Assembly: GCA_964404925.1 (NCBI GenBank)
Contig: CAYOLW010000001.1
Span: 2,106 to 66,105, forward strand
DNA: 64,000 bases
Source of the DNA: an uncultured Candidatus Saccharibacteria bacterium
GTDB lineage: Bacteria; Patescibacteriota; Minisyncoccia; Phycocordibacterales; UBA9973
Direction of reading: 5' to 3'
Positions within the stretch are counted from its first letter, which is position 1. Each line of letters starts with the position of its first letter. Below are positions 3,006 through 63,989 of the stretch, one piece after another. The notes below the pieces were generated by a model. It worked only from the letters and a program-made list of their open reading frames with translations. It made no database searches and was not told where the DNA came from. Position numbers and translations under genes: made by a program.

Positions 3006-3326
3006 ATGAACACACAAAACGCACAAAGTGCAATAAGGAACAACATAATAAGTTTATTTGGTATCGACACACTACCAGAAGAAAAACAAGAAGAGGTTAT
3101 AAGTAAAATCGGTAAAATGATTTTTCAAGCTGTTTTGATGAGGGTGCTACCAATGCTTGAAGAAGAAGACCTAAAATCCTATGATGAATTAGTGGCAACT
3201 AAACCAGGACCAGACGAATTAATGGGCTTCCTATTAGATAAAGTCCCTGAATTCCTAGACATAGTAGCAGAAGAATCAGAGAATTTTAGATCAGATGCTG
3301 AAGCAGTCATAAAACAAGTTAACTAA
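3006..3326 (+). CDS. Hypothetical small acidic protein (106 aa).
   Basis: The ORF is followed directly by a rho-independent terminator. Confidence 0.4.
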   Translation: MNTQNAQSAIRNNIISLFGIDTLPEEKQEEVISKIGKMIFQAVLMRVLPMLEEEDLKSYDELVATKPGPDELMGFLLDKVPEFLDIVAEESENFRSDAEAVIKQVN

Positions 3327-3330
3327 ACTA

Positions 3331-3358
3331 AAAACCCCGGGCAACCGGGGTTTTTAGT
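3331..3358 (+). terminator. Rho-independent terminator.
   Basis: The hairpin aaaaccccgg-gcaa-ccggggtttt is followed by a T-run. Confidence 0.7.
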
Positions 3359-3376
3359 TTGTGCTATATTTAGTGG

Positions 3377-5422
3377 ATGCAACACTTAGAAGGACTGAAC
3401 CCTAAACAAAAAGAAGCGGCATCTCATGTGTCTGGACCACTTCTTATCGTAGCTGGAGCTGGTGCAGGTAAAACCAAAACTATAGTACACAGAATTGTTA
3501 ATCTGGTTAAACAAGGCGTGAAACCCGAAGAAATACTGGCTGTGACTTTCACCAACAAGGCTGCTAAAGAAATGCGGGAAAGAGTGGAAAAAGAATTTCA
3601 CAAAAATGCCAGTGAACAGAGTGGTGTGCCGTTTGTTTCAACGTTTCATTCTCTCGGAGTGTTTATCATCAAAGAAAATGCCCCTATGCTGGGGCTTACG
3701 AAACATTTTTCTATATTAGATGAGGGTGATAGCGTTTCACTGGTGAAAGAAATAGTTAAAGAATTCGGTATTGATCCAAAACAGTATGACCCAAAAAAGA
3801 TTAAGGGAATTATTTCACGAGAAAAGGGTAAGTTTGTTAATCAAAGTGATTATGCTGAAAAAGCACTTAACCACGCCGGTGGGCGGGCAGGTTTCGGCAG
3901 CGGTATTGAAAATATTGTCGCCCGTGTTTGGGAAAAATATGAAAGCAAAAAGAAAGCAGAAAATTCATTGGATTTTGATGACCTATTAGTGAAGGCAACA
4001 GAACTACTGATTAATCATGAGGATATACGAGAACGCTACCAAAATAGATGGCAATATGTGCATATCGATGAGTATCAGGATACAAACGAAGTGCAGTACA
4101 GACTTTCAAAAATATTGGCTGAAAAAAATAAAAATATTTGTGTAGTAGGTGATGCTGATCAGAATATTTATTCTTGGCGTGGAGCAAACTTAAAAAATAT
4201 TTTGAGTTTTGAACGCGACTATAAAGATGCAAAAGTTGTACTGCTCGAAGAGAATTATCGTTCAACGCAAAACATATTAGCTGCCGCAAATGAAATAATT
4301 GAGAAGAATCAATTCCGTCCAGAAAAAAATCTTTTTACCAAAAATGAGGAAGGGGAGAAGATATCAATGTATGAAGCGCTAGATGAATCAGACGAGGCAG
4401 AATTTGTGGCAACAAAAATTTTGGAGTTATTAGACGAAGGAAAGCTTAGAGATTTTTCGAGTGGTCTGGTTGAGGGCGCACAGCACAAAGACACAAGCGC
4501 GCCCGACCCAAGGACCCGAGAAAAATCTGCTAAGCTTTCCGAAGTCGCTATCTTGTACAGAGCAAATTTTCAGTCACGAATTTTAGAAGAATCCATGCTA
4601 CGGTACAACATTCCATACCAAGTGCTGGGAGTAAAGTTCTTTGAACGTAAAGAAATAAAAGACACACTAGCCTACCTACGCGCAGCACTCAATCCTGAAA
4701 GTTTATCTGATATAAAAAGAATTATTAATTTCCCAGCTCGAGGAATTGGTAAAGCCAGTTTAGCAAAAATTTTTGCTGGACAGAAAAATGATTTGCCAAT
4801 TAAAATGCAAATTAAACTGCAGAACTTTTATGAACTTCTAGAAGACATCAAAAATGCAATTTTAGAAAACAAAGTTTCAGAGGTTATTAAATATGTAATT
4901 AAAAAGTCTGGGATAGAGGCAGAGTTGCTGGAAGGAGGAGATGAAGAAATGGAGAGACTTGAGAACATTAAAGAATTGGCAACACTTGCACTCAAGTACG
5001 ATAATCTGGAAAACGGATTAGGTGTTGAGAAATTACTTGAGGATGCAGCACTGGCAAGTGACCAAGATTCATTAATAATTAACCGGGAGCAAAAACAAGA
5101 AGTGAATGCGGTTAAACTAATGACTGTCCACGCAGCTAAAGGATTGGAGTTTGATTATGTTTTTATCGTAGGACTAGAGGATGGACTGTTCCCAAACCAA
5201 CGTGCTGGAGAAGTAAAAAACGGAGAGGATGCTGAAGAAGAACGTCGATTGTTTTATGTGGCACTTACTCGGGCTCGAAAAAAAGTATATTTATCTTTTG
5301 CAAACTACCGTACCATATTTGGCTCAAGACAGATCAATGCACCGTCCGAATTCCTCAGTGATATATCACAAGATTTAATCCAAAGAGAACGTGGTAATAT
5401 ATTAAAGACAATATATTTGTAA
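3377..5422 (+). CDS. uvrD: ATP-dependent DNA helicase of the UvrD/PcrA/Rep family.
   Basis: Walker A GAGAGKTKT is near the N-terminus. UvrD-family motifs include TFTNKAAKEM, the DEYQDTN Walker B/DExx motif, VGDADQNIYSWRGA, LEENYRST and the C-terminal VALTRARKKVYLS. Confidence 0.85.
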   Translation: MQHLEGLNPKQKEAASHVSGPLLIVAGAGAGKTKTIVHRIVNLVKQGVKPEEILAVTFTNKAAKEMRERVEKEFHKNASEQSGVPFVSTFHSLGVFIIKENAPMLGLTKHFSILDEGDSVSLVKEIVKEFGIDPKQYDPKKIKGIISREKGKFVNQSDYAEKALNHAGGRAGFGSGIENIVARVWEKYESKKKAENSLDFDDLLVKATELLINHEDIRERYQNRWQYVHIDEYQDTNEVQYRLSKILAEKNKNICVVGDADQNIYSWRGANLKNILSFERDYKDAKVVLLEENYRSTQNILAAANEIIEKNQFRPEKNLFTKNEEGEKISMYEALDESDEAEFVATKILELLDEGKLRDFSSGLVEGAQHKDTSAPDPRTREKSAKLSEVAILYRANFQSRILEESMLRYNIPYQVLGVKFFERKEIKDTLAYLRAALNPESLSDIKRIINFPARGIGKASLAKIFAGQKNDLPIKMQIKLQNFYELLEDIKNAILENKVSEVIKYVIKKSGIEAELLEGGDEEMERLENIKELATLALKYDNLENGLGVEKLLEDAALASDQDSLIINREQKQEVNAVKLMTVHAAKGLEFDYVFIVGLEDGLFPNQRAGEVKNGEDAEEERRLFYVALTRARKKVYLSFANYRTIFGSRQINAPSEFLSDISQDLIQRERGNILKTIYL

Positions 5423-5431
5423 TATTCACCG

Positions 5432-5536
5432 CACGAGATATAAATCTTTTCACGGTACGAAGTTTTTGAAGCTTAAAAACTTCTGCAACGCTCGGCCCGT
5501 CGGCCTCGCGACCCCTAAAAAAGATTATATCTCGTG
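5432..5536 (+). ncRNA. Structured intergenic element, copy A (~105 nt). It has a long outer stem with a single bulge and an inner hairpin, and it ends 11 nt before the rsmA start codon.
   Basis: The outer arms cacgagatataaatctttt and aaaagattatatctcgtg are complementary. The inner hairpin is gaagttttt-gaagctt-aaaaacttc. The second copy at 42573..42675 carries compensatory substitutions in both stems. Confidence 0.5.
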
Positions 5537-5547
5537 CAATAAACCAA

Positions 5548-6336
5548 ATGCATAAAGCAAAAAAATCACTTGGGCAAAATTTTCTTAAATCGGAAGCGGC
5601 CTTACGCGCAATAATTGAAGCTGGAGAAATAAAAAATACTGACACTATTCTCGAGATAGGACCTGGTAAGGGTGCCCTCACAGAGAGACTACTGGAAAAA
5701 GCAGGGAAGGTACTTGCTGTTGAGAAAGATCAAGATTTGATTTTATTCTTGCAAGAAAAATTTAGTGAGGAAATAAAAACCAAAAAACTAATTTTAATAG
5801 AAGGAGATATTTTAGATATAGAAATAAAAGAAAATAAATATAAAGTTATTGCCAATATCCCATACAACATCACCGGTGCAATTTTAAAAAAGTTTTTGTC
5901 TGGAGATAGTCAGCCAGAATTAATGGTTCTTTTAGTGCAGAAAGAAGTGGCAGAGAGAATTGTAACTAGAGATGGTAAAGAAAGCTTGCTTTCTATATCG
6001 GTCAAAGCGTACGGAGAACCCAAGTACATAACCAAGGTAGCCGCCAGGTATTTTAGCCCAGCACCAAAGGTAGACTCAGCTGTGATAAAAATAAGCAATA
6101 TTTCAAAAAATATTTTTACACAAGGAAAGGTTAGCGAACAAGTGTTCTGGGAATTAGTGCGAGCTGGTTTCGCACACAAAAGGAAAAAGTTAATTGGCAA
6201 CCTAAAAACCAATGACAAAAGTACTAACTGGGAAAGAATTTTTGAAAAAACTGGAATCAAAATAGACATTAGACCAGAAAAAGTATCTGTGGAAGAATGG
6301 GTGGCTATTTGCATCAACAAAAATATTGGTAATTAA
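5548..6336 (+). CDS. rsmA: 16S rRNA (adenine1518/1519-N6)-dimethyltransferase RsmA/KsgA.
   Basis: The N-terminal KSLGQNFL motif and SAM-binding LEIGPGKGALT are present, along with the NIPYNIT motif. Length is typical at 262 aa. Confidence 0.9.
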   Translation: MHKAKKSLGQNFLKSEAALRAIIEAGEIKNTDTILEIGPGKGALTERLLEKAGKVLAVEKDQDLILFLQEKFSEEIKTKKLILIEGDILDIEIKENKYKVIANIPYNITGAILKKFLSGDSQPELMVLLVQKEVAERIVTRDGKESLLSISVKAYGEPKYITKVAARYFSPAPKVDSAVIKISNISKNIFTQGKVSEQVFWELVRAGFAHKRKKLIGNLKTNDKSTNWERIFEKTGIKIDIRPEKVSVEEWVAICINKNIGN

Positions 6337-6766: not shown

Positions 6767-7825
6767 ATGAATTTTTTAAAAAAAATAAAAAAAATTAGAA
6801 TTAGTAAAAGATACAAGAAATATCTACCTAGTAGTAATTTTATACGTGTAGTTGGTAGTGGTGCTGGTTTTATGTTTGTAGTCTTTCTTATCTTTGGATT
6901 CGGTAATAGTTCAAAGAATTTTTTTAACTCAAAAAAACCAATTTTCAATGAAAATACAACAGTAAGTAGCCTGCTCCAGACCGATACAGATAGTGATGGA
7001 GTTTATGATTGGGAAGAAGCACTGTGGGGAACTGATATTAACAAAAAAGCTTCTTTCAACGACATACCAGACTCTGTTTTTATAGAACAAAGAAAGAGCG
7101 CCTTAGGCGTTGAAGGAGAACAAAACAATAAAGTGTTAAATGAAACAGATCAGTTTGCTCGAGAATTCTTTGCTTCTTATTTAGCGCTCAAGACAGCTGG
7201 TCAAGACCAAGAGACAATTAACAAATTTAGCCAGTCTTTAGGTGAAAAGATTAATAACACCAAATTGGTTGATGTCTACAGCGAAGCAAATATAAAAACA
7301 GCACCAGACAATGATTTTGATGCAAAAAAAGACTATTACTTAATCATACAAGCAGCTTTTGAAAAATATAGAGAATTAGGAATTGGGGATGAATTAGATA
7401 TTGTAAATAAAGGACTTTTAAGTTATACACAAGGTCAAACAAAGGTTAATTATGATAGATTAAAAATGATCGGCCAACTCTACCAAGAATTTGCTAAAAT
7501 TGTTATAGATACAAAAGTACCAAAAAGCTACACTGAAGAACACTTGTCGATGGCTAACACAGCTCACAACACGGGTACTGCTGTTTTGTCTATGGCAAAT
7601 GTGATAGATGACCCATTAGTTGGTTTAACTGGACTAAATCAATATGATTTATATAGCGAGGATTTTATTATGTCTGTAAAAAACCTAGAAGATGATCTTT
7701 TAGAAGAAATTGAGTCAACATATGGTATTAATGAGTACAATACAACCAGCAACGAAGACACCGCAACGGAAAAAGACTATTCTAAATACCCAGATGAAGA
7801 AATTGATTATCTTGATGAAGAATAG
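6767..7825 (+). CDS. N-terminally membrane-anchored hypothetical protein with a very acidic C-terminus.
   Basis: I prefer the ATG at 6767 (MNFLKK) because it follows the upstream stop, whereas the listed 6740 start overlaps the previous gene. One transmembrane segment is GAGFMFVVFLIFGFG. The C-terminus is DEEIDYLDEE. Confidence 0.45.
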   Translation: MNFLKKIKKIRISKRYKKYLPSSNFIRVVGSGAGFMFVVFLIFGFGNSSKNFFNSKKPIFNENTTVSSLLQTDTDSDGVYDWEEALWGTDINKKASFNDIPDSVFIEQRKSALGVEGEQNNKVLNETDQFAREFFASYLALKTAGQDQETINKFSQSLGEKINNTKLVDVYSEANIKTAPDNDFDAKKDYYLIIQAAFEKYRELGIGDELDIVNKGLLSYTQGQTKVNYDRLKMIGQLYQEFAKIVIDTKVPKSYTEEHLSMANTAHNTGTAVLSMANVIDDPLVGLTGLNQYDLYSEDFIMSVKNLEDDLLEEIESTYGINEYNTTSNEDTATEKDYSKYPDEEIDYLDEE

Positions 7826-18036: not shown

Positions 18037-18090
18037 TATCGTTTTAATTCAAATACTTGTATAATAGATAAAGTCCAAAGGACTTTATCT

Positions 18091-18519
18091 ATGCAATTTA
18101 AAGTTCCACAATTTTTAGATATTGAAGACAAGATATTCGGCCCATTTACTTTTAGCGAATTCGTTTATTTAGCAGGAGGGGCAGGTCTGTGTTATGTGCT
18201 TTTTAAATTGCTTGGTTTTTTTGTAGGTTTTGTACCGATACTTTTGGTTGGTGGATTTTCTTTGGCTTTAGTTTTCTATAGACCAAACGGTAAACCTTTT
18301 ATAAATATGGTTGAGAATAGTATTAGTTACTATACTCAAAACAGATTATATGTATGGAAAAGACAAGACAGAAGTGATAATAAAAACAAACAACCAATAA
18401 ACAATGCAGTGTTAACAGAAAATGAACACATAGTTAAATTAAACAAAAGTAAACTTAAGGATTTATCATGGAGTTTAGATGTACTTGATGTTAAAAACAA
18501 AAGTGAAGAAAATATTTAA
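18091..18519 (+). CDS. Small two-TM membrane protein. Its size and its position immediately upstream of VirB4 are VirB3/PrgI-like.
   Basis: Two hydrophobic helices are YLAGGAGLCYVLFKLLGFFVGF and VPILLVGGFSLALVFY. The assignment rests on position alone, without sequence-family support. Confidence 0.3.
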   Translation: MQFKVPQFLDIEDKIFGPFTFSEFVYLAGGAGLCYVLFKLLGFFVGFVPILLVGGFSLALVFYRPNGKPFINMVENSISYYTQNRLYVWKRQDRSDNKNKQPINNAVLTENEHIVKLNKSKLKDLSWSLDVLDVKNKSEENI

Positions 18520-31977: not shown

Positions 31978-32029
31978 GGCCTTATTTTAGCTTAAAAACT
32001 ATGTATAATCCATACTAGTAACACAATCA

Positions 32030-32057
32030 AAAAACCTGGGTTACTCCCAGGTTTTTT
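32030..32057 (-). terminator. Bidirectional rho-independent terminator with an A-run, the stem acctggg/cccaggt, and a T-run.
   Basis: The sequence is aaaaaacctgggttactcccaggtttttt. It lies downstream of the small acidic ORF on the minus strand. Confidence 0.65.
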
Positions 32058-32066
32058 GATTTTTAT

Positions 32067-39564: not shown

Positions 39565-40605
39565 ATGAAAAGATATCTCTATTTTTTAGCTTTCTGCTTT
39601 TTTTTAAGCGGATGCAGCTTTGGAGATATCGATTCTCCAGAAGCTGCTTACTTTTTTGTCAAAGGATGGATGCCAAATACATTAATGGCATTTCTTTTTT
39701 GTTTTGGAATGGCGATTATTATAGTCGCTACGTGGTCTTTATTTGTTAAGGGGATTGCTTTTTTATACCGTAATATACGGGATATAAAAAACTGGTTCTT
39801 GAACGGATGGAATTACTTTGTGATTGCTTGTATCTGTTTGTTTCTAACAACAATCAGGGACAAGTGGCCAGACTGGATTTGGGATTGGTATCAAGCCTCC
39901 CACCCGGTGTGGTTAACTGCCGAAAACAATATATTTGTTAATGATACAACCTATTCCATAGCTGGTATCGGTGAGATTCAGGAACAAACTATTGTGGACA
40001 TGTACTTGAAACGTTTGAGAGACAGCACTCAATCTGAATATGAGTATAACTCAGTCGTTAAACTTTTTAATGAACTGCAAGACACTCTGAAACTTAGAAC
40101 AGTGTTGTCTCTATACGAGCCAATAAATATTGAATGTGGAATGAACCCATTTCGTGTCCGTGATGACGGGCGTGCGGCGGGGCTTATTCAGTTCACAAAC
40201 GATGGACTTGAAAACATTTTTTATAAAGGCAAAAGGGTTACTCTAGATGCTGTGAAAGAGTGTTGTAAAGTTCGCGACATAGATATGATGTGTAGCATTA
40301 CAAAGATGTATTTGTTGAATGTATTTAAATCTAAAAAAGCATTCAGTAAATATATTGATGTGTATATTGCTATATTTGCACCGGCTCACGTGGGTAAAGA
40401 CGACAACTTTGTCTTGTACCAAGGCAAAAACAACGACGAATATTACTTGAATGCTGGTTTTGATGGCTGGTATTTAAGTAACGCTGGACAAATTCTTTAT
40501 GCCAAAAGTATGAAGGATTACAAGATCACAATCCTGGAAGTTAAACTAACTGTAATCGCAAAACGAGAACGGTTAATGAAACAATATCTAAAACAAAATC
40601 ATTAA
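39565..40605 (+). CDS. Lipoprotein/membrane protein with a lytic-transglycosylase (SLT)-like catalytic motif.
   Basis: The lipobox FLSGCSF is followed by transmembrane segments. ECGMNPFRVRDDGRAAGLIQF matches the SLT E-[SC]-G-x-N...A-x-G-L-[MI]-Q active-site pattern. Confidence 0.45.
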   Translation: MKRYLYFLAFCFFLSGCSFGDIDSPEAAYFFVKGWMPNTLMAFLFCFGMAIIIVATWSLFVKGIAFLYRNIRDIKNWFLNGWNYFVIACICLFLTTIRDKWPDWIWDWYQASHPVWLTAENNIFVNDTTYSIAGIGEIQEQTIVDMYLKRLRDSTQSEYEYNSVVKLFNELQDTLKLRTVLSLYEPINIECGMNPFRVRDDGRAAGLIQFTNDGLENIFYKGKRVTLDAVKECCKVRDIDMMCSITKMYLLNVFKSKKAFSKYIDVYIAIFAPAHVGKDDNFVLYQGKNNDEYYLNAGFDGWYLSNAGQILYAKSMKDYKITILEVKLTVIAKRERLMKQYLKQNH

Positions 40606-40617
40606 AATCACACCGCC

Positions 40618-41511
40618 ATGACAAAAAGATTTTTTTCATTGCTGACGTGCGTTTTATTGCTTTCAGTGGTAAACGCGCAAAAAAGAAACCCTGCCCAAGA
40701 GGAAAAGTTGGGAACACAAATTAACCCTGACCTAGTGTTGAACGATGTGGTTGCCACAATGGGCAACCGTGTTTTTCAGAAGCCAGAAGGGGATGTTTCC
40801 TTTGTTTTCTCAGGGCATGTATTGACCTATGTTGCCCGCGGGAACAAGGATTATGTTGATATTCTTTCCGCCTTAGGTGAGCCCAGAAAGTCCAAATATG
40901 GACCACTTAAAGGTATCTACATTGGTAAAGAATATGTAGCAGGCAGAAGTGTTGAACCAGGCAGAGACCCAGATCCACCAAGAAATCTTAAGACGAAAGA
41001 AGATAAGTATCGGTGGGCTATTACCAACAGCATTTCCAGGGCTGCAGATTATTCAGAAGCTAACAGTCCCGAAATATATCGCGAAGTAGGTTATACGTGG
41101 AGTGAATTCCTGCGCATGGTTATGCCATATATGGGCCTTGTTGTTATTCTGTTGTGTGTTTTGTGGTTATTCCACGACGGACTTGGAAGAGAGTTGGTAA
41201 AAAACTTGAGTTGGCGAAATTTCGGAGTTGGGAAAGGGATATTCTCTTTTTGGGTTGTTATAACAGTGATTTATGTTGTTACTTTGTTGTGTGTAGGTGC
41301 TGGACTTGTGATTAATGCCGGCCTTGCTTTTTTTGAAGGCTACACAAGCAGTGATAATATTTTATGGCCCGCTGCGCAATGTATCGGTATCACATACCTT
41401 GTTGGTATTGGTATTGATTGGCTTGTAAGTTCTGACAAGTACACCACATCAGTTAATCAAATGTGGCTGGCGCAAGCGTCAGGTCACGGCAAAGGACATG
41501 ATCACGATTAA
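40618..41511 (+). CDS. Secreted or membrane hypothetical protein (297 aa) with a C-terminal transmembrane cluster and a His-rich tail.
   Basis: The signal peptide is LLTCVLLLSVVNAQ. C-terminal hydrophobic helices are present, and the tail is GHGKGHDHD. Confidence 0.4.
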   Translation: MTKRFFSLLTCVLLLSVVNAQKRNPAQEEKLGTQINPDLVLNDVVATMGNRVFQKPEGDVSFVFSGHVLTYVARGNKDYVDILSALGEPRKSKYGPLKGIYIGKEYVAGRSVEPGRDPDPPRNLKTKEDKYRWAITNSISRAADYSEANSPEIYREVGYTWSEFLRMVMPYMGLVVILLCVLWLFHDGLGRELVKNLSWRNFGVGKGIFSFWVVITVIYVVTLLCVGAGLVINAGLAFFEGYTSSDNILWPAAQCIGITYLVGIGIDWLVSSDKYTTSVNQMWLAQASGHGKGHDHD

Positions 41512-41523
41512 AACAAAAACATT

Positions 41524-41937
41524 ATGTTGGTTCCAAGATTAGATAAATCAGCTAAAATAGCGCTCGCACTTCTTGCGCTGACCTGTACACTTATCACTAT
41601 TTTTCTACCAGAAGTCTGGTACGATTTATGGAGAATGGTGAAATTTGTAATTCACTATTTTTCTATTGTTGTGTTTTTTATTTCAATCGGCTTTGTTTTT
41701 TACATCAATAACGAAAGGAAAAAACACAAAGAAGCAGAAAAGGGTGAGGCGAAAACCATTGTCATTCCGCAAACGGTTCTCGAAAAAATAAAAATAACAC
41801 TTGCGGATTCAGTGATTGCTTGGGTTGTAATAGGGGTGATTGCATTTTTGCTTTTCACAATAACCAAAGAGGCCCCAGTACCCGGATTTAGGGATGCGAA
41901 CGGCAACAAAATTGAACAAACCATTATCAGAGATTGA
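41524..41937 (+). CDS. Hypothetical membrane protein (137 aa).
   Basis: Three hydrophobic helices are present. Confidence 0.4.
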   Translation: MLVPRLDKSAKIALALLALTCTLITIFLPEVWYDLWRMVKFVIHYFSIVVFFISIGFVFYINNERKKHKEAEKGEAKTIVIPQTVLEKIKITLADSVIAWVVIGVIAFLLFTITKEAPVPGFRDANGNKIEQTIIRD

Positions 41938-41992: not shown

Positions 41993-42025
41993 AAACGGTA
42001 CTCGAACGAGTACCGTTTTTTTATT
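41993..42025 (+). terminator. Rho-independent terminator.
   Basis: The hairpin aaacggtactcg-aa-cgagtaccgttt is followed by a 7-T run. Confidence 0.7.
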
Positions 42026-42055
42026 GCCAAAATATTTGTGTTAATGTGGTAGAAT

Positions 42056-42568
42056 ATGGTTATGGAACCTGAGAATGTACAAGAATCAAAAGACGAGAAA
42101 TTAGAGAGGGAAGCCAAGCATTTGGTTCACCACGTGTTGGCTCACTCATACACTGTTTATTTCTTTGTGCTTTTGGTGGGGGTGGCGCTGGATATGCTTT
42201 TCCCAATTCGTGTTTTTCCTCAGTATTTAAATACTGTTGGCATAGTCATGCTTCTTTTGTCTTCGGCTCTTATAGTCTGGGCTCAGACAAGCTCCATCGG
42301 CAGTCAGCACCACAGAAACAACAAAGAAGACTTAACCCACGATCATTTCAGATGTGGGCCGTACCGCTATAGCCGCACACCGACACATTGGGGACTCTTT
42401 CTTTTGGTATTAGGTTTCGGACTTATAATAAATGCATTCTTTATTACGATTCTAACTATTGTTTCATTTTTTATTACTAAGGTCACATTGATAGCTAAAG
42501 AGGAGAAAATCCTAGAAAGCCGCTACGGTGAGCCGTACAAAGAGTATAAAAAATCAGTCAAACTGTAA
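42056..42568 (+). CDS. Polytopic membrane protein with a possible ICMT/phospholipid methyltransferase-like fold.
   Basis: Four to five transmembrane helices are present. The C-terminal-half motif GPYRYSRTPTHWG resembles the ICMT-family G-x-Y-x-x-x-R-H-P-x-Y motif. This identification is weak. Confidence 0.35.
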   Translation: MVMEPENVQESKDEKLEREAKHLVHHVLAHSYTVYFFVLLVGVALDMLFPIRVFPQYLNTVGIVMLLLSSALIVWAQTSSIGSQHHRNNKEDLTHDHFRCGPYRYSRTPTHWGLFLLVLGFGLIINAFFITILTIVSFFITKVTLIAKEEKILESRYGEPYKEYKKSVKL

Positions 42569-42572
42569 TCAA

Positions 42573-42675
42573 GCAGTATATAAACTTTTTTCCGGTACGA
42601 AATTTTTGAAGCTTAAAAATTTCTGAAGTTGGCTCGCCGTCGCTCGCCAAACCCCTTCAAAAAGTTATATACTGC
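42573..42675 (+). ncRNA. Structured intergenic element, copy B (~103 nt). It ends 7 nt before the likely holA start.
   Basis: The outer arms gcagtatataaactttttt and aaaaagttatatactgc have the same 1-nt bulge as copy A. The inner hairpin gaaattttt-gaagctt-aaaaatttc carries a compensatory g/c-to-a/t change relative to copy A. Confidence 0.5.
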
Positions 42676-42682
42676 TTTCATC

Positions 42683-43330
42683 ATGATTTACCTTTTCGCT
42701 GGCGATGATGCTGACAAGAAAATAGCCAACTATCAAAAGTTTATAACTTTACTGCCCAAGGAAACAGAAGTTTTTAAAATTGCCCGCAATAACTTCGATA
42801 AAGTAGAAATAGAAAGCTTTTTCTCTGGGTCTGGTCTTTTCTTTAAAACATGTGCGGTTGTATTTTCTAATATTTTAGAAAGGGAAGACGAAAGGGGTTT
42901 TGTTTTTTCTAAACTAAATGAATTAGCAGATTCACTGAACACTTTTGTTTTTATTGAAAGTAAATTATTAAAATCTGAACTTGATGAATTCAAAGAGGTT
43001 AAAGCTCAAATAAATTATTTTGAATTACCAAAAGAAAAACACGAAAAATATAATAATTTTATATTAGCCAATGACTTGGGTGCCAGGGATAAGAAAAGTC
43101 TCTGGTTGCATTATCGTGAGGCGGTTGATTTGGGTGTGGGGCTTGAAGAATTGGTTGGGGTAATGTTCTGGAAGGTTAAAGATATGCTCGTAAAGGGTTT
43201 GTACGGCAAGTGGCAAAAGGAGGAATTGCAAAAAGTGGGTGCCAGGTTATCCTACCTGTTGCCTGAGGCCCGTCGTGAAGGTCGCGACGCCGAAATAGCC
43301 TTCGAGCAGTTTATACTAGAAATTTTTTAA
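42683..43330 (+). CDS. holA: Short DNA polymerase III delta subunit (HolA)-like protein.
   Basis: I prefer the start MIYLFAGDD at 42683, because the listed 42629 start lies inside the structured element. The N-terminal YLF-G-D-D and the SGSGLFFKTCAVVF pattern resemble holA N-domains. The protein is about 216 aa, shorter than canonical. Confidence 0.5.
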   Translation: MIYLFAGDDADKKIANYQKFITLLPKETEVFKIARNNFDKVEIESFFSGSGLFFKTCAVVFSNILEREDERGFVFSKLNELADSLNTFVFIESKLLKSELDEFKEVKAQINYFELPKEKHEKYNNFILANDLGARDKKSLWLHYREAVDLGVGLEELVGVMFWKVKDMLVKGLYGKWQKEELQKVGARLSYLLPEARREGRDAEIAFEQFILEIF

Positions 43331-43403
43331 TGTGCGCCCAGCAGGAATCGAACCTGCGACCATCTCCTTAAAAGGGAGCTGCTCTACCAGCTGAGCTATG
43401 GGC
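43331..43403 (-). tRNA. tRNA-Lys (anticodon UUU).
   Basis: Manual fold gives acceptor GCGCCCA/UGGGCGC, a D-arm GCUC-AGCUGGUAGA-GAGC, an anticodon stem GCUCC/GGAGA with loop CUUUUAA, and a T-arm GCAGG-UUCGAUU-CCUGC. The sequence closely resembles E. coli tRNA-Lys. Confidence 0.85.
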
Positions 43404-43427
43404 GCGTAGTGTGATAATATAGTAAAC

Positions 43428-45545
43428 GTGTCGCAAAATCAAGGAAAGGTATTTAAATTAAAGAGTGAATACAAACCTGCCGGGGATCAACCCAAGGCTA
43501 TTTCTGAATTGGTGGATGGTCTTAAAAAAGGAATGAAAAAGCAAACCCTCCTCGGTGCCACCGGTACTGGTAAGACTTTCACCATGGCGAATGTTATTGC
43601 TGAGTATAATCGTCCAGCTTTGGTTATTGCGCACAATAAGACACTGGCTGCTCAGCTGGCCCAAGAGTTCAAAGCATTTTTTCCTGATGCTGCGGTGCAC
43701 TATTTTGTTTCTTATTACGATTACTATCAACCCGAAGCCTATATGCCAGTATCAGATACTTATATAGAAAAAGATGCTCAGATTAACAAAGAGATAGACC
43801 GTTTGCGACATGCTTCAACCCAGGCATTGCTTACTCGACCCGATACAATCATCGTTGCATCGGTATCTTGTATTTATGGTTTAGGTTCTCCCAAGGAGTA
43901 CGAAAAAGTAAATATGAAACTAGAGGCAGGAATGAAGATAGATAGAAACACTCTAATGAAGAGGTTGATTGAAATACATTTTTCAAGGACCAACGCAGAC
44001 CTTTTGCCTGGAACTTTTCGTGCGGTAGGGCCCAAGGTTGAATTTATGCCAGTTTCAGAGAATATCATGTACTCAATAGAGTTTGGTATTACTGGAGTGG
44101 ATAAAATATTTAAAATAGATCCAGTCTCGATGAGAATAGTCCAAGAAGAGAAGCACGTTTTTATTTTTCCAGCCAAGCACTTCATTACTGAAGATAAAAA
44201 AGTAAAAATTGCATTAGATAATATCAAAAAGGAACTAGCTCTTCAGTTAAAGAAATTTGAAAAGGAAGGAAAGTTGCTTGAAGCAGAGAGGATAAAAAGG
44301 AGGACTAACTACGATCTAGCTATGATAAAAGAAGTTGGCTACTGTAGCGGAATAGAAAATTACTCCAGGCATTTGTCTGGGAAAAAAGAAGGTGAGGCTC
44401 CAGACACACTCCTGTCGTATTTTCCAGATGGATTCCTGACAATTATCGATGAATCGCATGTGACCTTGCCGCAACTTTCTGGTATGTATGCTGGCGATGC
44501 TTCTCGCAAAACGACTTTAGTTGAATATGGATTTCGCCTACCTAGCGCAAAAGACAACCGACCACTTAAGTATCCTGAGTTTGGAGAAAGAATTAATTCG
44601 GTAATTTATACCAGTGCTACTCCTGGAGATTTAGAAAGAGAAGAAAGCGCCCAGATTGTAGAACAGATAATTCGTCCAACAGGGCTTGTTGATCCAGAAA
44701 CAATAATCCGTCCAGTTTCCGAGAAGGGTAAATATCCAGGCCAAATTCAAGATTTCATTATTGAAACAGAAGTTACTATAAAACGAGGTTATAGGGTTTT
44801 GGCGACAACCCTCACTAAGAAAATGGCTGAAGACTTATCTGTATACCTAAAGGATAAAAAAATTAAGGCTGAGTATCTACATAGTGATATTAAAACGATA
44901 GACAGAATAAAAATTCTTACAGAATTCCGTAAGGGTAAATTTGATGTATTAGTAGGTGTTAACTTGTTGCGTGAAGGTCTGGATTTGCCTGAGGTGGCAT
45001 TGATTGGAATTTTTGATGCTGACAAAGAAGGATTCTTGCGTAGCGAAACAGCATTGATTCAAACCATTGGCCGAGCTGCCCGTAATGCTGAGGGCCGAGT
45101 TATTTTATATGCTGATCAACTAACCGGATCTATGGACCGTGCACTAGGGGAGACTAAACGCCGTCGAGACATACAGATTGCTTATAATAAGAAGCACGGT
45201 ATAACACCCAAAACTATATTGAAAAACATTAAAGATATTACCGAAGAACTTGAAAGCGAGCACAGTAAGGCTGTAAATGCTGAACTTAATATAGACTTAG
45301 AGGTGTTCAAAAAAGCATATGCAAAAGAGTTGAAATTAGATAAAACAAAAATTACTAAACAAAAAGATGGAACAACAGAGGTAAAACTGCACATGTCAGA
45401 CGAAGAGCGCAGTGATTTGGTGTATGAAAAAATAATAAAAATAAAAGAGAAAGAAATGAATAAAGCAGTGAAGGAACTTGATTTTGAAACTGCCGCTATA
45501 TTGCGCGATGAAATTGTTGTTTTGCGCGAAAGGTCTAAAAAGTAA
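43428..45545 (+). CDS. uvrB: Excinuclease ABC subunit B.
   Basis: The N-terminus FKLKSEYKPAGDQPKAI and Walker A GATGTGKTFT are present. The helicase motif is DESH. The C-terminal UvrB/UvrC interaction helix is FETAAILRDEIVVLRE. Confidence 0.95.
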   Translation: MSQNQGKVFKLKSEYKPAGDQPKAISELVDGLKKGMKKQTLLGATGTGKTFTMANVIAEYNRPALVIAHNKTLAAQLAQEFKAFFPDAAVHYFVSYYDYYQPEAYMPVSDTYIEKDAQINKEIDRLRHASTQALLTRPDTIIVASVSCIYGLGSPKEYEKVNMKLEAGMKIDRNTLMKRLIEIHFSRTNADLLPGTFRAVGPKVEFMPVSENIMYSIEFGITGVDKIFKIDPVSMRIVQEEKHVFIFPAKHFITEDKKVKIALDNIKKELALQLKKFEKEGKLLEAERIKRRTNYDLAMIKEVGYCSGIENYSRHLSGKKEGEAPDTLLSYFPDGFLTIIDESHVTLPQLSGMYAGDASRKTTLVEYGFRLPSAKDNRPLKYPEFGERINSVIYTSATPGDLEREESAQIVEQIIRPTGLVDPETIIRPVSEKGKYPGQIQDFIIETEVTIKRGYRVLATTLTKKMAEDLSVYLKDKKIKAEYLHSDIKTIDRIKILTEFRKGKFDVLVGVNLLREGLDLPEVALIGIFDADKEGFLRSETALIQTIGRAARNAEGRVILYADQLTGSMDRALGETKRRRDIQIAYNKKHGITPKTILKNIKDITEELESEHSKAVNAELNIDLEVFKKAYAKELKLDKTKITKQKDGTTEVKLHMSDEERSDLVYEKIIKIKEKEMNKAVKELDFETAAILRDEIVVLRERSKK

Positions 45546-50823: not shown

Positions 50824-50897
50824 CCCAGTACTAAAAATTTAAATGTTAATTTTAATTTATTTACCCGTAATCAAAATTTTAGTACGGGACAAGTAAA

Positions 50898-51743
50898 TTA
50901 AATTTGATGTTTGTCGCAAAAATGTGCGCTACGGCCATTTACTACTTTTCGTATTATAACACCATGGCAGGACTTTTTCTTGCATTTTTCACCACGAAGA
51001 CCATAGACAGTGTGTTCTGACTGGAAATTTCCTTTTTCGCCATAGACATTAATATAATCTGACATTGAATCACCTCCAAAATCGATACCTTTATTTAAGA
51101 GTATTTTAGTGGATTCATAAATTTTTCGCAGTTCTTTGTTATTAATGTTTCGCACTAGTCTCTCTGGGTGTACATCGGCGCGCCACAGTACCTCATCTGA
51201 ATATATATTACCAACACCAACAAGTATACTTTGATCCATTAAAACTGTTTTTATCTTGCCGTTTGGTTTCTTGGTTAATCTTTCTTTGAATGTTTCAAGT
51301 GTGAAGCCTTTTTCTAGTGGCTCAGGACCGAGGTCTTTCAAGTGTTTAGACTCGTGCATATTTTTAGTATCAAGTAGAGTCATCTTGCCAAATTTGCGCG
51401 GATCAGAAAAAGCGAGTTTTTTACCACCGGATAAGGTAAACAAGACGTGAACATATTTATCGTGATTTTTGACGAGCATTCGCCCTGTCATTTTCATATG
51501 TACTAAAATCGTTTTATTCCCCGACAGGTGTATTAGAATATTTTTGGCTCGACGTTTAACTTCTGTTATCTTTTTACCAACTACTTCCTTTTTAAAAATA
51601 TTGAAAAATGCGGGTTCGGATACCGTGTCTTTTTTCCTTTTGTCTTTGGTTCTAAGGTCAGTCCAAACATCAAGGATTTTATGTCCTACGATTTCTTTCT
51701 GTAACCCTAAAACGGTGGTTTCTACCTCTGGTAACTCGGGCAT
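50898..51743 (-). CDS. mutM: Formamidopyrimidine-DNA glycosylase (Fpg/MutM; the Nei family is not excluded).
   Basis: The N-terminus is MPELPEVETT, with catalytic Pro2 and Glu3. The H2TH region is present. The C-terminal zinc finger is CKKKSC...CDKHQ. Confidence 0.9.
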   Translation of the reverse strand: MPELPEVETTVLGLQKEIVGHKILDVWTDLRTKDKRKKDTVSEPAFFNIFKKEVVGKKITEVKRRAKNILIHLSGNKTILVHMKMTGRMLVKNHDKYVHVLFTLSGGKKLAFSDPRKFGKMTLLDTKNMHESKHLKDLGPEPLEKGFTLETFKERLTKKPNGKIKTVLMDQSILVGVGNIYSDEVLWRADVHPERLVRNINNKELRKIYESTKILLNKGIDFGGDSMSDYINVYGEKGNFQSEHTVYGLRGEKCKKKSCHGVIIRKVVNGRSAHFCDKHQI

Positions 51744-54339: not shown

Positions 54340-54395
54340 AAACAAAACTTAAAAACACTTACATAAGAGTAAGTGTTTTTAAGTTTTGTTTCCAC
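54340..54395 (+). terminator. Long perfect palindrome (arms of about 24 bp) after the tRNA-Arg gene, a likely terminator.
   Basis: The arms aaaacaaaacttaaaaacacttac and taagtgtttttaagttttgtttcc are separated by ataagag. Confidence 0.55.
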
Positions 54396-62761: not shown

Positions 62762-63427
62762 ATGAAAACAAATAAGAAAGTTCTGATAGTTGGTGTTTTT
62801 GCTTTAGCGTTTGCCTTTACTGTTTCTCCTAGTTTAGTATCAGCAGATTTTTCTCAAATAAGCGGATCAAGCACTATGACAGTTGGCTCAAGAGGGGAAA
62901 ATGTTCGAAGCCTGCAGAAGTTTATTAGTTCTAATGTAGATATGTATCCTTCTGGTGTTCAAGATGGAAACTTTGGTCTACAAACTAAAAATGGTGTTAT
63001 CCAGTTTCAACTTGCATACAATCTAGCAGCCGACGGTATTGTTGGAACCAGTACTCGCAACAAGATAAATACTGTTATTACTGCTGGTAGGGGTATTGAT
63101 GTGTCTGGTCCTATGATAAATAATTTAGCGGTTACTATATCTGGCCGAAATGCTACTATATCATTTAATACTAATGAACCTGTGAAGACAACAGCCTTTT
63201 TCGATACTAACTCTATTAATTGGAGCAATTGGGATGATTCAGTTACATCACTTGCAATACCAGCAATATCTGGAATGCAAAACACTGATTCAAATTTTAG
63301 TACATCTAAGCAGATAGTTTTAACTAATCTTTCTGCAAATACAAACTATAATTATACAGTTACTGCAACTGACCCAAGTGGAAATATCTCAGTAGTGTGG
63401 CCAAAGGTGTTTAGAACAGCACAGTAA
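62762..63427 (+). CDS. Secreted protein with a peptidoglycan-binding (PG_binding_1-like) domain followed by an FN3-like domain.
   Basis: The signal peptide is VLIVGVFALAFAFTVSPSLVSA. The PG-binding pattern is VRSLQKFI...DGNFGLQTKNGVIQFQLAYNLAADGIVGTSTRNKI. Confidence 0.6.
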   Translation: MKTNKKVLIVGVFALAFAFTVSPSLVSADFSQISGSSTMTVGSRGENVRSLQKFISSNVDMYPSGVQDGNFGLQTKNGVIQFQLAYNLAADGIVGTSTRNKINTVITAGRGIDVSGPMINNLAVTISGRNATISFNTNEPVKTTAFFDTNSINWSNWDDSVTSLAIPAISGMQNTDSNFSTSKQIVLTNLSANTNYNYTVTATDPSGNISVVWPKVFRTAQ

Positions 63428-63434
63428 AGTGTTA

Positions 63435-63480
63435 AGCCATAAATAAAAAACCACTTTAAAAGTGGTTTTTTATTTATGGC
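63435..63480. terminator. 46-bp perfect palindrome between convergent genes, acting as a bidirectional terminator.
   Basis: The arms gccataaataaaaaaccactttt and aaaagtggttttttatttatggc are exact reverse complements of each other. Confidence 0.7.
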
Positions 63481-63989
63481 TTATAAAGCAACTTTAGCTT
63501 TTCGAGCCCACGATGTAATTGTACTGCTAAATAGTTTTTTGAGTGGCCAGTAATAAGTGACATTTCTTCAAGAGATAAATCTTGTACATGCCGCATTCGC
63601 ATAATCTTGCGGTACGCTATTGGTAATTTACTGATTAATAAAACAGCAGCTTTGCCATCTAAAATATGTAACATTCTATTAGAAGTGTTTTCGCTCGGCT
63701 CAAACCCTTTTTCTAGCAAAGAGTCCAAAGATACTGCCTTATGTTTTCTATACTGATCAATTATCAGAGCATTTAATACGTGAAATAGAAATGATTTCAT
63801 CGTTTCTATTTTTCCAACTTTTACCAAGTATTTCCATGTTTTAAGGAAGGTATCTTGAACTAAATCATCACTTACTGCATGATCGCCAGTTTTAAAAAAT
63901 GCTCGGGCATTCAGGCCTCTCCCATAGTCCTTGTGTGCTAGAGATATTATGGCTTGCCGCAAGATTCTTTGTTTTGGAGTCATGGTCAT
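63474..63989 (-). CDS. ECF-type RNA polymerase sigma-70 family factor.
   Basis: Region 2 is DLVQDTFLKTWKYL...IIDQYRK. Region 4 is YRKIMRMRHVQDLSLEEMSLITGHSKNYLAVQLHRGLEKLK. Confidence 0.75.
   Translation of the reverse strand: MTMTPKQRILRQAIISLAHKDYGRGLNARAFFKTGDHAVSDDLVQDTFLKTWKYLVKVGKIETMKSFLFHVLNALIIDQYRKHKAVSLDSLLEKGFEPSENTSNRMLHILDGKAAVLLISKLPIAYRKIMRMRHVQDLSLEEMSLITGHSKNYLAVQLHRGLEKLKLLYKP

Follow-up and report, generated by a model that had tools for sequence, protein, structure and literature searches.

Palindromic repeats built on a three-way junction form a previously undescribed family in Patescibacteria, with one copy between a methyltransferase-like gene and a clamp-loader delta-like gene

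The element at positions 42571-42677 of the window (the whole stretch of 64,000 nucleotides analyzed here) belongs to a previously undescribed family of palindromic repeats of Patescibacteria (Paceibacteria/Nomurabacteria-type genomes) that is organized around a three-way junction; our searches of open-access papers turned up no account of such a repeat from this phylum. Genomes of Patescibacteria are about 1 Mb long and leave hardly any room between genes, and the mobile elements and non-coding RNAs known from them are few. We favor, with moderate confidence, the explanation that this copy, hereafter copy B, is a selfish palindromic repeat similar to REP, ERIC, and RPE elements, that it spread as a DNA hairpin, and that it is passively co-transcribed at its locus. 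That explanation is supported by the large family, empty orthologous sites, a recent duplicate, dead derivatives, sister families, and the occurrence of copies in both orientations.

The first-pass annotation had placed a structured element at 42573-42675 and had described it as the second of two direct repeats about 37 kb apart. The place is correct and the extent is slightly larger, since the complete element (42571-42677, + strand) has 107 nt and is scored by our covariance model at 127 bits (E 8e-28). The other copy, copy A (5431-5537, + strand, 107 nt, 119 bits), adopts the same three-way-junction fold, and the distance between the two is 37,140 nt with both on the + strand, as proposed. 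The spacer that each copy occupies separates two genes transcribed in the same direction: copy B lies between a gene for a PEMT/ICMT-like membrane methyltransferase (42056-42568, + strand), whose TAA at 42566-42568 ends 2 nt before the element, and a gene for a 215-aa clamp-loader delta-like protein (42683-43330, + strand), whose ATG begins 5 nt past it, and copy A lies between uvrD/pcrA (stop codon at 5420-5422) and rsmA (ATG at 5548). In copy B the 5' arm of the closing stem P1 (42571-42590, with a bulged A at 42584) pairs with the 3' arm at 42659-42677, as assigned from the fold and from reading the sequence, and all further parts are likewise on the + strand: J1/2 (TCCGGTAC, 42591-42598), the AU-rich 11-bp hairpin P2 (GAAATTTTTGA-AGC-TTAAAAATTTC, 42599-42623, with AAGCTT at its center), J2/3 (TGAAG, 42624-42628), the GC-rich hairpin P3 (TTGGC-TC-GC-CGTC-GC-TC-GCCAA, 42629-42650), and J3/1 (ACCCCTTC, 42651-42658). 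The corresponding parts of copy A, also on the + strand, are P1 (5431-5450/5519-5537), P2 (5459-5483), and P3 (5489-5510). The core is thus read in the order CGGTAC, AU-rich P2, CTGAAGTT, GC-rich P3, and AACCCCT, with the long AT-rich P1 closing it, and a 33-nt core pattern has exactly two matches in the window, compared with 0 expected from 100 shuffles. Relative to dinucleotide shuffles, the folding z-scores of the two copies are -6.4 and -7.3. The outer 7 bp of P1 are wholly different between copies A and B, yet complementary in each, P2 contains one compensatory pair, and P3 has been rebuilt with compensation.

The element does not correspond to any structured RNA represented in Rfam 15, where the gathering score was reached in the window by two tRNAs only; at E<=10 over 42450-42800 there was only noise (best snoR116 at 19.7 bits, and an IRES at 13.5 bits), and the families it fails to match include hammerhead, twister, pistol, hatchet, tRNA-like, Y RNA, and SRP. 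A hammerhead-like reading of CUGAAGU...GAAAC was rejected, with positions that vary between copies by eye and no covariance model match. Taken as guides, the P1 arms have no further match in the window at <=3 mismatches, and a search for a promoter inside copy B gave a single sigma-70-like match of 9/12 that is not above shuffles. No terminator-like site was found in 42000-43500. On both strands the element core has a T run on its 5' side and an A run on its 3' side, the canonical terminators of the window being A-run/stem/T-run. Long near-perfect AT-rich hairpins of this latter kind, with stems up to 25 bp, are found at 3324-3360, 18064-18092, 32020-32065, 41993-42022, 50840-50910, 54340-54390, and 63426-63492, and they look like bidirectional intrinsic terminators; one of them directly follows a tRNA-Arg, and the covariance model scores them weakly on both strands.

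Beyond the window, a scan of GTDB species genomes with an exact pattern gave 24 loci, all in Patescibacteria MAGs (one of them labeled Burkholderiales), and a looser pattern gave 62 further loci in JGI metagenomes. A covariance model built from 26 copies found others that the patterns had missed, bringing the family, which we call family 1, to 71-73 distinct copies, all from Patescibacteria, at a density of about one per 20-40 kb. The elements are 99-153 nt long, and nearly all contain the three-way-junction core of 64 nt, from CGGTAC to ACCCCT, in which these two hexamers are invariant. P1 ranges from 17 to 45 bp and is essentially copy-specific beyond the CTTTTT/AAAAAG that adjoins the core; its outer 7-30 bp are unrelated between copies, and conserved terminal inverted repeats are absent. 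All copies seen are intergenic, none lying inside coding sequence, and they are usually within about 15 nt of both neighbors. Where both neighbors could be called, 22 contexts are tandem-sense, 11 convergent, 9 tandem-antisense, and 4 divergent, and the orientation follows that of the upstream gene by 42:15 and positive GC skew by 40:14, the latter being inseparable from gene orientation here. The 9 antisense copies have covariance model scores as high as those of sense copies, and one antisense copy has been kept at an orthologous site. Searches of viral contigs and of phage and plasmid records, as possible vectors, found no copies, and clustering of the ORFs in about 0.56 Mb of flanking DNA gave no recurrent candidate mobilizing gene, the recurrent neighbors being orthologous housekeeping genes. 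The contig with the Burkholderiales label (L017, JAMPXW010000001.1, 277 kb, "Burkholderiales bacterium") carries two family-1 elements and also a homologue, P0115, that is 56% identical to the Paceibacteria 215-aa protein, and because of this homologue the label is probably wrong.

Orthologous sites with and without the element can be compared directly. In three relatives (L025/26, L027, and L029/30) the synteny of the PEMT-like gene, the delta-like gene, and uvrB is kept and the element is absent, with delta-like proteins that are 69-74% identical. The two genes there are joined with only 0-20 nt between them, in one case overlapping as ttcTAATGatt, in another as tttTAGtATGatt, in which TAG and ATG are separated by a single t, and in the third as a TAA, 20 nt, and an ATG. 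The corresponding spacer in the window is 114 nt and is lineage-specific as a whole, including the outer stem. The comparison shows that copy B was inserted, or is at least lineage-specific, between genes that abut in relatives. The closest relative (L028, 87% identity) is a 761-bp broken contig that is uninformative. The junction of uvrD and rsmA is filled by family 1 in the window and by another palindromic family in L093, and in L094 it carries none. The idea that the core had been inserted into the loop of an older terminator hairpin was rejected, both on the empty sites, which are without any hairpin, and on the polarity of the T run and A run of P1, which is opposite to that of the real terminators of the window. 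An origin of the outer P1 from an inverted duplication of the target likewise found no support at copy B, as judged by eye.

Copies have also been duplicated and degraded. One metagenome contributes loci L059 and L072 on separate contigs; their flanks are unrelated, but the hairpins match at 96% identity from end to end, a P1 of 36 bp included; the whole hairpin is therefore the copied unit. This is the only clear pair from a recent duplication. In L020 a truncated hairpin (7500-7590) has a loop of just CTTTTTTGGTACG, and in L091 (4868-4982) the 5' arm of P1, CGGTAC, and the 5' half of P2 are mirrored across the AAGCTT center with P3 lost, to give a perfect palindrome, a product that directly records a template switch within one strand of a hairpin. 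Two sister families have the same architecture as family 1, of which family 2 is composed of GGGTCC, GAATATTTTTC-loop, CTCGGCGCGTCCGCCTC, and CCCTT, and family 3 is characterized by CGAATGGTCTGGGG...CCGAGGACCTGAG, and they often adjoin family-1 copies in the opposite orientation. Family-1 and family-2 elements directly adjoin each other, or share about 13 nt, in L024 (822-943(+)/930-1049(-)) and L079 (8940-9061(+)/9048-9167(-)), are about 60 nt apart in L034 (3759-3881(-)/3582-3700(+)) and L087 (6845-6967(-)/6668-6786(+)), and are about 1 kb apart in L016 (3639-3760(+)/2536-2657(-)), pairs that are reminiscent of mosaic BIME organization.

Family 3 is present in the window itself, where a 103-bp palindromic element (4439-4541, + strand, core CGAGTGGTCTGG...CCAAGGACCCGAG) lies in frame inside uvrD/pcrA (3377-5422). 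It encodes a 29-aa insertion, residues 359-387, that is absent from the structures of PcrA (1pjr) and UvrD; PcrA is matched over 9-350 and 352-647 by the window protein, whose residues 359-387 have no counterpart. Palindromic DNA occupies the same uvrD codon position in L093 (2046-2189, opposite orientation) and L094 (1981-2112). At the uvrD-rsmA junction of L093 (3036-3115, GCA_964473855.1), it is a family-3 palindrome that takes the place of copy A's family, and there the public call for rsmA, of 305 aa, is extended upstream by about 40 codons across the element and overlaps uvrD by 38 nt. This extension is probably a start artefact induced by the element, an explanation that may also apply to several further homologues of RsmA, 287-323 aa in length.

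An alignment of 73 sequences was used to examine covariation, with 500 shuffles and register-slid controls. In this alignment 89% of cells are paired and 34 of the 38 pairs have double-sided changes, values reached by 0 of the 500 shuffles, and the register-slid controls fall to 40-64% paired; P2 is 99% paired across the family, with covariation in 7 of its 11 pairs. Even so, neither a clear RNA signature nor a strand signature is seen in the helices. Hardly any one-sided (G-U) changes occur, and the ratio of G.U to A.C in P1 is 13:43 in the covariance model alignment and 40:56 in an unbiased dynamic-programming alignment of the arms. The minus strand has the better minimum free energy in 69 of 71 copies, which reflects the composition of the core. 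Seven groups of copies are flanked, in different genomes, by one shared pair of gene families each, and in these the flanking proteins are 44-92% identical and the cores of about 63 nt are 78-98% identical. In one comparison, L002 with L065, two pairs of P1 have changed on both sides and none is uncompensated. P3 exists as a few discrete, fully paired alleles (GGCT/AGCC, GCGC/GCGC, GCTC/GAGC, GCAC/GTGC, and GCTCGC/GCTCGC), and it switches between them even in orthologues with 92%-identical flanks. This pattern in P1 and P3 is better explained by patch conversion from paralogues, or by template switching in the hairpin, than by point mutation and selection. The near-absence of G-U changes, the lack of a G.U excess, and the switching of P3 alleles count for a repeat acting at the DNA level. 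The case also carries a caution for the discovery of RNA motifs, in that palindromic DNA can show overwhelming covariation with nothing to indicate that selection acts on its RNA. The deep conservation of the junction nucleotides, for its part, needs a constraint, either from the propagation of the element itself or from a function in the host.

As to mechanism, the unit may be copied as a folded single-stranded DNA hairpin, in which the invariant junction nucleotides together with the P2 and P3 hairpins would constitute the recognition module for a putative trans-acting enzyme. Strand bias without target-site duplication, conservation that depends on structure, and few invariant unpaired bases are typical of HUH/Y1 enzymes and of IS200/IS605/REP-RAYT-type systems, and by analogy an enzyme of the HUH/Y1 type would be the best-fitting known mechanism because family 1 has no target-site duplication, has a strand bias, and conserves structure over stem sequence. 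The longest direct repeats flanking the copies are no longer than those of mismatched left/right controls, the sole exception being an 8-bp TTATTGTT at L059. The complementarity of the stems would be maintained by hairpin template switching and conversion between copies, and not by selection on RNA. At the copy B locus, the passively co-transcribed element would fold out of the mRNA and bring the TAA, 2 nt before P1, beside the ATG, 5 nt after it. The overlap or abutment of the two genes in relatives suggests translational coupling, and the proximity of TAA and ATG after folding may explain why the insertion has been tolerated, presumably with little harm at the locus beyond drawing gene callers to the TTG in P3. 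What counts against the selfish reading is the lack of target-site duplications, of conserved terminal repeats, and of vectors, together with the finding of no mobilizer or autonomous relative and of just one clear pair from a recent duplication. The conserved cores at orthologous sites also count against it, in that an unconstrained insertion should have decayed, and they point to either a host-level constraint or continual conversion between copies.

A host-level constraint might be exerted on RNA. It is possible, and we entertain it only tentatively, that operon transcripts carry the element as a structured RNA module with a function in the host, for example an intercistronic processing or stability element, in which P1 would be a substrate of RNase III and the three-way junction a platform for protein binding; such a module would be gained and lost between genes, with its RNA fold under selection. 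The strong covariation in all three helices agrees with this, as do the near-invariance of the junction nucleotides across deep divergence, the conservation of cores at orthologous sites whose flanking proteins are down to 44-79% identical, the preference for the sense orientation in tandem contexts (22 vs 9), and the very tight packing between stop and start codons. However, copies in antisense and divergent contexts are equally well conserved, the helices have no G-U excess and almost no one-sided substitutions, there is no consistent association with a gene, and the module is absent at the orthologous site in three relatives with overlapping or near-abutting genes; nor does an RNA module need mirrored or truncated derivatives or a recent duplication of the whole unit. 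We regard as rather doubtful the related proposal that the core is a functional catalytic or protein-recruiting scaffold of RNA or single-stranded DNA, with P1 as a processing substrate, that is selected at dozens of gene boundaries. If true, it would explain the 78-98% identity of cores at orthologous sites despite flanking proteins of 44-79% identity, and no structured non-coding element of phylum-wide occurrence would have been described for Patescibacteria before it.

Selection might also act on the DNA itself, with an extruded hairpin or cruciform, or nested palindromes, binding a chromosomal protein in a BIME-like manner (candidates being a topoisomerase, a nucleoid protein, or a replication or recombination factor), so that dispersal of the element would serve chromosome organization. 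Helices without a clear RNA signature, cores that are conserved at orthologous sites in either orientation to transcription, and the spacing of about one per 20-40 kb fit such a site. The orientation tracks GC skew as well, though here the skew and the direction of the genes are confounded, there is no known partner protein, and the presence or absence of the element among close relatives, along with its dead derivatives, argues against an essential site. We consider this explanation unlikely.

The first-pass annotation had taken the element to be the 5' leader of the delta-like gene, which does not hold in view of the three syntenic relatives without the element and the more than 70 copies in unrelated contexts. 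A gene-specific leader or riboswitch-like regulator of this holA-like gene would accord with the position of copy B, 5 nt upstream of the ATG and in the sense orientation, and with the riboswitch-like combination of a conserved junction core and a variable closing stem, but a P1 of 19-44 bp is far too stable for a switch and the element has no Rfam match. Moreover, the genes that follow the >70 copies are unrelated to one another, and for many of these copies there is no sense gene downstream at all, and these varied contexts therefore exclude a gene-specific leader for practical purposes, leaving it very improbable.

The same annotation was right that the ORF start listed at 42629 falls inside the element, the TTG at 42629-42631 being the first three bases of P3. 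With the 215-aa product as query, 570 homologues were found at E<=1e-5, and among the 120 listed almost all are 215 aa, cover the query at 100%, and start with MIYLF(A/S/T)GDD. The only 233-aa form among those listed is the self-match from the NCBI record, whose 18 extra residues (MARRRSPNPFKKLYTAFI) are read from P3, J3/1, and the 3' arm of P1. Since the homologues are 215 aa and the relatives have no element sequence before the ATG, the start is therefore at ATG 42683 (MIYLFAGDD), as had been argued earlier, and translation almost certainly begins there; the start call at 42629 is an annotation artefact caused by copy B. That part of the element is coding, with the delta-like protein starting at TTG 42629 as in the NCBI-derived call of 233 aa, can be put close to negligible, since the in-frame TTG ORF and its use in one public gene call are set against N-terminal residues unique to the window genome, the 215-aa length of almost all listed homologues, and relatives with nothing at all upstream of the delta-like ATG.

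The label "holA-like" for this gene has some support at the level of the fold and none from Pfam or NCBIfam profiles, the protein having no Pfam, NCBIfam, or PDB sequence match. Its AF2 model (pLDDT 88.5) retrieves clamp-loader subunits first in a Foldseek search of the PDB, including E. coli delta (8giy_A, 1jqj_C, and 3glh_A), with a probability of 1.0 but a TM of only 0.37-0.46, and at 215 aa the protein is a third shorter than delta, which has about 340. The predicted structure makes the label reasonable at the fold level only. A tRNA-Lys(UUU) (43332-43405, - strand) lies 2 nt past the stop of the delta-like gene (43330) and 22 nt before the GTG of uvrB at 43428, and the same tRNA-Lys(UUU) follows the delta-like gene in L028. 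Upstream of the PEMT-like gene, three consecutive genes on the + strand (39565-41937) encode proteins of 346, 297, and 137 aa without significant Pfam matches, which display a lipoprotein-like signal, multi-pass membrane segments, and a His-rich C-terminus (...GHGKGHDHD).

For those who annotate MAGs, the element is a recurrent source of wrong starts and N-terminal extensions, amounting to 18 false residues in the present case. The element and its covariance model also provide a ready marker with which to follow how genomes change and exchange DNA horizontally in a phylum that is uncultivated. The sharp question that they raise is what holds the core of a selfish-looking hairpin near-invariant across deep divergence.

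Like MITEs, family 1 is small (<500 bp), non-coding, and multi-copy, with unrelated flanks, but it lacks conserved terminal inverted repeats and target-site duplications; as in mobile repeats generally, orthologous sites are filled in some genomes and empty in others, here at the two junctions that carry copies in the window. We know of no IS that is related to family 1. REP/BIME elements, which are associated with RAYT (HUH Y1) enzymes, and the ends of IS200/IS605 elements have a conserved hairpin structure with few invariant bases, no target-site duplication, and a strand bias. REPs are simple hairpins of 20-40 nt with a conserved 5' tetranucleotide, and they occur in hundreds of copies together with a cognate RAYT gene. 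The family-1(+) copies beside family-2(-) copies in L024, L079, and L034 resemble the alternating orientation of BIMEs, but a three-way junction of about 107-150 nt present in tens of copies falls outside the definition of a REP. ERIC elements, also called IRUs, were reportedly studied by Hulton in 1991 and by Wilson and Sharp in 2006. The resemblance to ERIC is considerable, in that both are imperfect palindromes of about 100-130 bp that are intergenic within transcription units in either orientation, have a variable copy number, filled and empty orthologous sites, and no known transposase, and show a puzzling conservation of sequence across genera (PMC10969869 and, in part, general knowledge). 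However, the two share no similarity of sequence and come from different phyla, and family 1 conserves a central three-way junction while its closing stem varies and its P3 takes discrete compensated alleles. RPEs are palindromic families of about 100-150 bp in a reduced genome that are both intergenic and in frame within conserved genes (PMC10969869), a behavior matched here by the 29-aa insertion of the sister family at a surface position in uvrD/pcrA. Family 1 differs in being intergenic only, with no conserved encoded peptide found and no sequence relationship to RPEs. Correia/CREE elements are likewise small, AT-rich, non-coding, multi-copy, and intergenic, and a transcript of family 1, like theirs, would fold into a stable stem-loop; RNase III can cleave elements of that type, which can also contain promoters (PMC10969869), whereas family 1 is without their conserved terminal repeats and target-site duplication. 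The hairpin repeats of organelle genomes such as sponge mitochondria (PMC2800124), an unrelated system, are self-folding and invade the short intergenic regions of compact genomes. Overall, family 1 lacks the defining features of a canonical MITE and behaves most like the ERIC, REP/BIME, and RPE elements.
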